A stretch of 29,571 nucleotides of DNA. It comes from an uncultured Gammaproteobacteria bacterium. GTDB taxonomy: Bacteria > Patescibacteriota > Microgenomatia > JAMCZE01. Shown in pieces: positions 614 to 867 of the stretch. The notes beneath the pieces were generated by a model. It was not told the origin of the DNA. It searched no databases and was given only the letters and a program-made list of their open reading frames with translations. Numbering within the stretch: position 1 is the stretch's first letter; every line of letters starts with the position of its first letter. The stretch is taken from the NCBI GenBank assembly GCA_964597255.1, contig CAZQWX010000063.1:1-29571 (forward strand), in the 5' to 3' direction. A program made the translations under genes and the position numbers.

Positions 614-708
614 AACCAACATCCTCCTGTGCTTCAATTCGCGCCATGCACTACGTGTATGCTCGCGAGCTTTGCTTCGGACGGATTGATGGTTTCTAAG
701 CTCATCGT

Positions 709-726
709 CTCCGCCAAGTGGCGGAT
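709..726. repeat. Short palindromic element CTCCGCCA-AG-TGGCGGAT (intergenic copy)
   Basis: 7-bp inverted arms TCCGCCA/TGGCGGA; 16 of 18 nt identical to the copy at 14033-14050. Confidence 0.7.
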
Positions 727-747
727 TCTTTTCGCTAACAAACCATC

Positions 748-769
748 AAAAAAGCCCCCGGATGGGGAC
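748..769 (-). terminator. Putative intrinsic terminator/attenuator in the rplC leader
   Basis: Minus strand reads GTCCCC-ATCC-GGGGGC followed by TTTTTT (6-bp stem with one G.U pair, 4-nt loop, U6). Confidence 0.6.
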
Positions 770-792
770 TTTAAAGTCCTCCCTACATCCGA

Positions 793-828
793 CTATACTG
801 CGTTAGTGAGTTTAGGGCTTACTAACAT
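793..828 (-). CDS. Putative leader peptide MLVSPKLTNAV upstream of rplC
   Basis: ATG 9 nt after TATAAT; the TAG stop lies 2 nt before a hairpin that competes with the terminator at 748-769. Confidence 0.45.
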   Translation of the reverse strand: MLVSPKLTNAV

Positions 829-837
829 GTACGGTGA

Positions 838-867
838 ATTATACCAAATAAATGATGAGAAAAGCAA
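838..867 (-). promoter_or_regulatory. Sigma70-type promoter for the rplC operon
   Basis: TTGCTT-18 bp-TATAAT with an extended TG (TGgTATAAT). Confidence 0.6.

Follow-up and report, generated by a model that had tools for sequence, protein, structure and literature searches.

Transcription attenuation by a translating ribosome is described for the trp, his and phe operons of Proteobacteria, in which the first strand of an anti-antiterminator helix lies within a short open reading frame (ORF), the stop codon of this ORF comes just before the antiterminator strand, and the antiterminator shares sequence with a terminator located immediately ahead of the biosynthesis gene that is regulated. The Escherichia coli S10 operon is governed by an L4-mediated, NusA-dependent leader that lies before rpsJ and contains no upstream ORF (uORF). 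That leader places rplC, rplD, rplW, rplB and the genes onward under premature termination and is built from two adjacent hairpins, the second of which is a terminator near the first gene. To our knowledge, the E. coli-type S10/L4 leader is confined to Gammaproteobacteria, regulation of the S10-spc-alpha genes is largely unknown outside a few model phyla, and nothing is known of it in CPR/Patescibacteria, which have few regulators. Two further systems resemble the locus described here in part: leaderless polycysteine short ORFs of mycobacteria act as cysteine-responsive attenuators (bioRxiv 10.1101/834739), and a candidate leader in Archaeoglobi, named for L4, is found directly upstream of rplC, rplD, rplW and rplB (Eckert and Weinberg 2020, PMC7247131).

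We analysed a 29,571-nt stretch of DNA (the window) from a CPR/Patescibacteria bacterium with a tiny genome, found in mine drainage. A sequence-only reading of the window had placed a separate promoter and a uORF attenuator in front of rplC; this observation was confirmed, and its interpretation is partly supported by what follows. We read positions 867–745 of the minus strand as a promoter with a ribosome-mediated transcription attenuator behind it, serving rplC and the ribosomal-protein genes that follow, a reading to which we give an even chance. The leader parts that make it up have good comparative support. On this best reading, what is new is an attenuator of trp-type layout that is leaderless and stands ahead of a ribosomal-protein operon (Table 1).

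The layout matches the trp, his and phe attenuators in each of the three respects given above: the uORF covers the first strand of the anti-antiterminator helix, it stops just before the antiterminator strand, and the candidate antiterminator overlaps a terminator next to the gene thought to be regulated. Unlike them, the rplC-leader uORF is leaderless, has no Shine–Dalgarno (SD) sequence and lacks a run of codons for a single amino acid, and the genes behind it encode ribosomal proteins rather than biosynthetic enzymes, in a CPR bacterium. With the E. coli S10 leader it shares the two adjacent hairpins, the terminator near the first gene and the set of genes that premature termination would control, from rplC, rplD, rplW and rplB onward, but no similarity in sequence or Rfam family was found, and here rpsJ stays with tuf and the leader precedes rplC. 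The mycobacterial short ORFs likewise start with an AUG at the very 5′ end of their polycistronic transcripts and attenuate the genes downstream; they differ in carrying Cys codon runs and in serving cysteine-related operons. The Archaeoglobi leader is placed in the same way, directly upstream of the rplC block, whereas it is archaeal and differs in structure, and cmscan did not match it here.

Table 1 Features of the rplC leader and its surroundings in the window, with positions counted from the first letter of the window unless a contig is named
Feature	Position	Strand	Details
fusA	5572–3488	minus	
Peptide deformylase	3491–2886	minus	Pfam
tuf	2798–1611	minus	
rpsJ (S10)	1483–1172	minus	Next to tuf, apart from rplC
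Orphan 96-codon ORF (ORF96)	1168–878	minus	Begins 3 nt past the rpsJ stop
Spacer from ORF96 to rplC		minus	264 nt
-35 box TTGCTT	867–862	minus	Read in the sequence; 18-nt spacer to the -10 box
Extended -10 box TGgTATAAT	846–838	minus	TATAAT 843–838, TG 846–845
Putative leaderless uORF MLVSPKLTNAV + UAG	828–793	minus	ATG 828, UAG 795–793; 11 codons and stop; no SD
Segments 1 to 5 of the leader			1 GUUAGUAAG; 2 CCCUAAACUCACUAAC; 3 UAGUCGGAUGUAGGG; 4 CCCCAUCC; 5 GGGGGC + U6
Candidate helix 1:2 (GUUAGUAAG/CUCACUAAC)	826–802	minus	About 81% of cells paired; -3 to -6.6 kcal/mol
Helix 2:3, putative anti-antiterminator or pause-like hairpin	817–781	minus	CCCUA/UAGGG, UC/GG, ACUA/UAGU; RNAalifold
Candidate antiterminator 3:4 (GGAUGUAGGG with CCCCAUCC)	790–760	minus	GGATG...CATCC hairpin
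Intrinsic terminator 4:5, AAAGTCCCC-ATCC-GGGGGCTTTTTT	772–748	minus	Stem 769–764/759–754, loop AUCC, U6
66-nt hairpin with stem GATGGTTT/AAACCATC	750–685	minus	-30 kcal/mol, z -7.8
Dispersed structured repeat (model R2), 127 nt	744–618	minus	Between TTGAT and GGTTATG; brings AGGAGG 628–623
TCCGTCC, can pair with AGGAGG 628–623	682–676	minus	Closing helix of the second domain of the repeat
rplC (L3) start codon ATG	613–611	minus	Reading frame; N-terminus MNTFYGFK aligns with relatives
Other copies of the repeat in this genome (G000)	C164:5138–5256, C96:520–629, C72:1428–1544, C16:2421–2529, C73:19–140		

The split of the S10 operon claimed in the sequence-only reading is borne out, with rpsJ beside tuf and the leader between rpsJ and rplC, not upstream of rpsJ. 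ORF96 has no Pfam family and is missing from the rpsJ–rplC loci of relatives, and we treat it as an orphan insert outside the rplC leader. The rpsJ–rplC spacers of several relatives hold other, unrelated inserts. A DNA contig from an independent run of the same study (X1) covers positions 395–1326 with 0 differences, which indicates that the assembly is sound. Three small metatranscriptomes of the same mine-drainage study contained nothing from the rplC-leader locus.

We compared the locus by a DNA search of this genome and 60 relatives, which divides the region into a conserved leader, 831–745, and an unrelated dispersed repeat, 744–618. A covariance model of the leader, built from 13 copies and run on the 16 genomes of the family (here the whole order), found the 85-nt core in 16/16, in one copy per genome and directly upstream of rplC; variants of it occur in 5 further metagenome contigs. 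By DNA search, the core is 72–85% identical in other genera of the same family. The leader keeps with rplC even where 1.3 kb has been inserted after rpsJ (G008). Occurrence once per genome and always before rplC puts its features beyond chance. S10 matches were obtained in 148 genomes, among them the unpublished G081, on which none of our conclusions depends. In a scan of genome contigs for S10, the matches listed are mostly from distant phyla and carry unreliable organism labels; among them at least one is a further family member (L056), identical in sequence to G008. The Rfam search that the sequence-only reading had proposed as a check covered the whole window and gave no family that reached its gathering score, and a relaxed search of positions 500–1300 (E up to 10) gave matches at chance level only, to asX2, Phe_leader and a CRISPR repeat. 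The weak, sub-threshold Phe_leader match (cmscan, 22 bits, E 0.44) reflects a shared layout only.

The proposed rplC promoter, TTGCTT and TATAAT 18 nt apart, is present at 867–838, and its counterparts recur in relatives. Of the 22 aligned leaders, 20 have a -10 hexamer (TATAAT, TAAAAT, TACAAT, TAGAAT or TAAGAT) that ends 6–9 nt ahead of the AUG, and nearly all have a TTGnnn box 17–18 nt further upstream, and this within unrelated flanks that are the end of rpsJ in some genomes and inserted DNA in others. Judged by this conservation, the rplC promoter is real. A simple scanner passed over it (the -35 box matches at 3/6 positions only) and also missed the terminator at 772–748, probably because the stem runs into the T-run. 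As the spacing between -10 box and AUG is kept across the leaders, the transcript is predicted to start at the AUG or no more than about 3 nt before it (about 831–829); in one relative (G002) the AUG stands 9 nt from the predicted start.

A start of this kind would be in keeping with the rest of the genome. In the 864-kb assembly, strong -10 hexamers at the five distances of 6–10 nt upstream of a long ORF's first ATG number 43, 19, 16, 16 and 12, against a background of about 4, and leaderless-type spacing is found for at least 100 of 640 long ORFs. An SD-like motif precedes only about 10% of ORFs in this genome. By these counts leaderless translation is normal in this organism, and the -10-to-AUG spacing of the rplC leaders coincides with the genome-wide leaderless peak. 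Translation of a leaderless uORF in so SD-poor a genome is thus plausible, and the same habit accounts for the lack of an SD before rplC in relatives. SD motifs are scarce here although the 16S rRNA of a relative ends in CACCUCCUUUCU. In the relatives the U-tract and the rplC ATG are too close for a second promoter to fit between them; with no other promoter for rplC, read-through of the terminator is obligatory there. Four relatives (L008, L010, L018 and L238) carry GAUGGUUAUG after the U-tract, with an in-frame AUG/GUG two codons upstream of the annotated-like rplC start, and their L3 may begin M-V-M.

The 11-codon uORF of the sequence-only reading is likewise present, and its pattern across relatives suggests a coding sequence. 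The AUG is in frame with the motif xCU-AAA-CUC in 20 of 21 distinct leaders, at a distance of 3, 4 or 5 codons, so that indels come in threes. Three leaders with diverged 5′ ends (G002, G007 and L239) keep the frame, G002 with one codon more and L239 with one codon less. The uORF stops 5–14 nt before GGAUG in 20/21 leaders (at -5 in 8, at -9 to -11 in 11 and at -14 in 1). Conservation of the UAG at -5 in itself proves little, since this triplet belongs to helix 2:3. Where the in-frame UAG at -5 is missing or out of frame, however, an earlier stop is found in 10/10 leaders (UAA, UAG or UGA; never UGG), as against 2/10 of the other leaders (Fisher p = 0.0007, without phylogenetic correction), and the linker bases around the early stops vary freely; because the leaders are related, these frame and stop statistics overstate independence. 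The one exception is L233, whose AUG is in another frame, some 20 nt away from the predicted start, with a stop inside GGAUGUAGG. We conclude from these alignments that the frame and the stop position have apparently been kept by selection. The peptide MLVSPKLTN(AV) holds no regulatory codon run, no residue being repeated in series, and so, if the element is an attenuator, its signal is not a single amino acid.

Folding of the aligned leaders with RNAalifold gives a state in which segment 2 pairs with segment 3 and segment 4 with segment 5. Over 22 distinct sequences, helix 2:3 and the terminator together have 96.4% of cells paired and 10 compensatory pairs, and 0/500 shuffles were as good. 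Helix 2:3 joins uORF codons 5–9 to the stretch just past the stop, with about 97% of cells paired and compensatory changes in three pairs (15–51, 16–50 and 25–40). The terminator (-13.3 kcal/mol, z -3.0 on folding) covaries in 7/8 pairs, and its loop stays RUCC-like while the stem changes. In relatives its U-tract ends at most about 20 nt, and mostly 4–10 nt, before the rplC start. A uORF ahead of an antiterminator hairpin (790–760) and an overlapping, mutually exclusive terminator had already been proposed in the sequence-only reading, and both hairpins lie where it put them; the covarying helix 2:3 and the leaderless start had been overlooked.

An alternative state, 1:2 with 3:4, is possible in every sequence. 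Among the aligned leaders, helices 1:2 and 3:4 showed no covariation above control. The isolated 3–4 region nevertheless folds into the 3:4 hairpin in nearly all leaders (-6 to -15 kcal/mol), and segment 3 is more complementary to the 5′ strand and loop of the terminator than expected, with a median of -9.45 kcal/mol versus -5.4 kcal/mol in 261 generic terminators from the same genomes (p = 2e-7; p = 0.004 versus C-rich terminators only). These folding results make the 3:4 antiterminator plausible, and helix 1:2 is a possibility. Naked RNA is predicted to favour helix 2:3 plus terminator by about 8 kcal/mol. We also considered segment 3 as a decoy SD and rejected it; GGAGG is present in this window, but the family keeps only GGG.

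These features suggest how the attenuator would work. Transcription would begin at the AUG or 1–3 nt before it, and the 11-codon uORF would be read as a leaderless message. Codons 5–9 (segment 2) can pair with segment 3, which begins at the stop codon; once helix 2:3 has formed, the C-rich segment 4 would pair with segment 5 into the terminator, and transcription would stop 5–12 nt short of rplC in relatives and ahead of the inserted repeat in this genome. A ribosome standing on segment 2 would free segment 3 for the 3:4 antiterminator, and RNA polymerase would read through, whereas a ribosome at the uORF stop, 5–10 nt short of GGAUG, would cover segment 3 wholly or partly and favour termination. 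As in the trp leader, read-through would be set by the position of the first ribosome when the polymerase arrives at the U-tract. With no ribosome on the transcript, helix 2:3 would form and sequester the antiterminator strand, so that absence of translation most likely also leads to termination.

The feedback put forward in the sequence-only reading is thus upheld in one part and revised in another. Termination when the ribosome reaches the stop, and read-through when it is slow, fit the trp-like geometry; an untranslated leader would most likely terminate as well. The scheme takes the uORF to be translated and 3:4 to work as an antiterminator, which we infer from the conservation of the reading frame and from the folding models, respectively. 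Our guess is that translation speed or ribosome availability is the signal sensed. The element may also act as an insulator: in transcripts that read in from tuf–rpsJ the AUG would be internal and without an SD, and such transcripts would be terminated here.

A leader of the E. coli S10 type, sensing a ribosomal protein, could be built from the same parts. Here L4, L3 or L23 would bind the 2:3 hairpin and increase termination, and might also block rplC translation, since the hairpin abuts the start codon; the AUG and the ORF would be incidental. A sensor of this L4/L3 type is the main rival of the attenuator; it is unlikely on present evidence, yet it retains a real share of probability. So far as we know, every regulator described for a ribosomal-protein operon belongs to the protein-binding leader type. 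The build is also the same: a promoter is followed by a hairpin whose internal-loop bases are invariant and then, right next to the first gene, by a terminator hairpin. A protein might just as well bind at the invariant loop bases (AAC/AUG). There is a precedent for the position in the candidate leader assigned to L4 upstream of rplC in Archaeoglobi (PMC7247131). What a protein sensor leaves unexplained is the conserved frame, the indels in threes, the stop-codon pattern and the leaderless promoter spacing, and it has no match to any Rfam leader family. In its favour, the G009 leader matches 23S rRNA best at GUUAGUCGGCCCUAA in domain III, with 14/15 identical, but with a shuffle p of 0.035–0.5 depending on the leader the likeness is not significant, and k-mer and local alignments of the leaders with the 16S and 23S of G009 were no better than shuffles. 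A resemblance of the leader to h45 and the 16S tail was also tried and dropped, as the real 16S end of G002 gave nothing beyond 5-mers.

It is distinctly unlikely that the element senses nothing. The terminator would then be constitutively leaky, ending tuf–rpsJ transcripts and tuning the level downstream, or promoter and terminator together would make an sRNA of about 83 nt; conservation would reflect the needs of the promoter, the terminator and RNA stability. A promoter followed by about 83 nt and a terminator is indeed the anatomy of an sRNA gene, and sRNAs derived from attenuators are known, rnTrpL being an example (PMC7968998). It is, moreover, common in the class for a stable terminator-like hairpin and T-run to lie no more than 30 nt from the start of rplC: 60 genomes of other families include 35 with a recognisable L3, and 23 of these have one. 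Yet a plain terminator needs neither an invariant 45-nt upstream region, nor a covarying helix 2:3, nor a loop complementary to GGAUG, and the obligatory read-through into rplC in relatives also speaks against this account. A small-molecule OFF riboswitch, whose 2:3 hairpin would bind a metabolite such as an alarmone and lock the terminator form, would accommodate the invariant internal-loop bases and the terminator/antiterminator expression platform, but is highly improbable given a putative aptamer so small and simple, the lack of likeness to any Rfam riboswitch, an occurrence once per genome before rplC only, and an ORF pattern that it leaves unexplained.

The class-wide hairpins and T-runs before rplC are usually preceded by a promoter-like site. 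By inspection, several families have a CGGAU...GGG strand that pairs with a CCCC.AUCC terminator (GGAUU/AAUCC is one of the variants), and other families a conserved AUGGAGGUGAU together with a GUGCCUCCGGCAC terminator. In L207, L211, L218, L225, L196, L220 and L145 (families f19, f23, f48, f41 and f36), AUGGAGGUGAU stands 8–15 nt past the -10 box; it forms a perfect SD and also opens a 6–7-codon ORF reading M-E-V-...-stop. The terminators of f23, f41 and f48 hold CCUCC complementary to it; those of f19 and f36 do not. The idea that the rpsJ stop codon plays the part of the uORF in other families failed in the correct reading frame.

The sequence-only reading had extended the leader to position 623, taking in a long stem and a TCCGTCC that could pair with the SD. 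Both features are present, but they belong to a mobile repeat at the rplC site of this genome and not to the attenuator or the conserved leader. The site is empty in G009, G006 and L238, where TTTTTTGAT runs directly into GGTTATG. The repeat has 7 copies in this genome and 11, 5 and 4 in three relatives, with 0 in their sister genomes. It is about 120 nt long and absent from Rfam, and its end, AGGAGGAU, pairs with AUCCGNCC. Six aligned copies share a fold of two hairpin domains, in which 15/32 pairs covary. The copies inspected, except this genome's own copy on C164, sit immediately downstream of the U-tract of a terminator and follow TT(G/A)AT, or TTTAT in one. Matches to the Y1 transposase family PF01797 were found in G000, G001, G015 and G003, and none in the repeat-less G009. 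The repeat is thus multi-copy and patchy in distribution, has terminal hairpins, inserts 3′ of a short target without duplication and shares its genome with a Y1 gene. It is probably a PATE/REP-like mobile element of the IS200/IS605 type, the link to the transposase being correlative. By these comparisons it landed behind the terminator, is not part of the attenuator, and supplies rplC with AGGAGG in this genome. The copy at C73:19–140 (L004/L005) is a perfect long palindrome of two inverted half-copies at a contig end, either an assembly artefact or a head-to-head pair. In another family, L202 (G096) has a relative of the repeat, UAUCCGUCCGAAGCG...GGAGGAGGAU, in the corresponding position, with the leader terminator on one side and rplC on the other, which suggests that this position is an insertion hotspot.

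Returning to the ribosome-mediated attenuator, we tentatively consider a bolder form of it, a possibility that we would not yet call likely. The ribosome itself would be the ligand: in a lineage poor in SD sites and rich in leaderless messages, the leaderless mini-ORF would sample the loading and speed of free 70S ribosomes on the nascent transcript and set termination or read-through into the S10-spc-alpha block of about 25 genes. Because the AUG is at the 5′ end only in transcripts from the element's own promoter, the same element would also terminate read-through from tuf–rpsJ, and the rplC leaders found across the class would be variations on it. At 85 nt the element is small, and the predictions for mutants of the AUG, the stop and the paired strands are clear and need no culturing. 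If the leader is a translation-coupled attenuator, the supply of ribosomes in these bacteria would be set by a read-out of translation rather than by free ribosomal protein. This would be a different answer to the classic homeostasis problem, and it would give leaderless short ORFs a concrete role.
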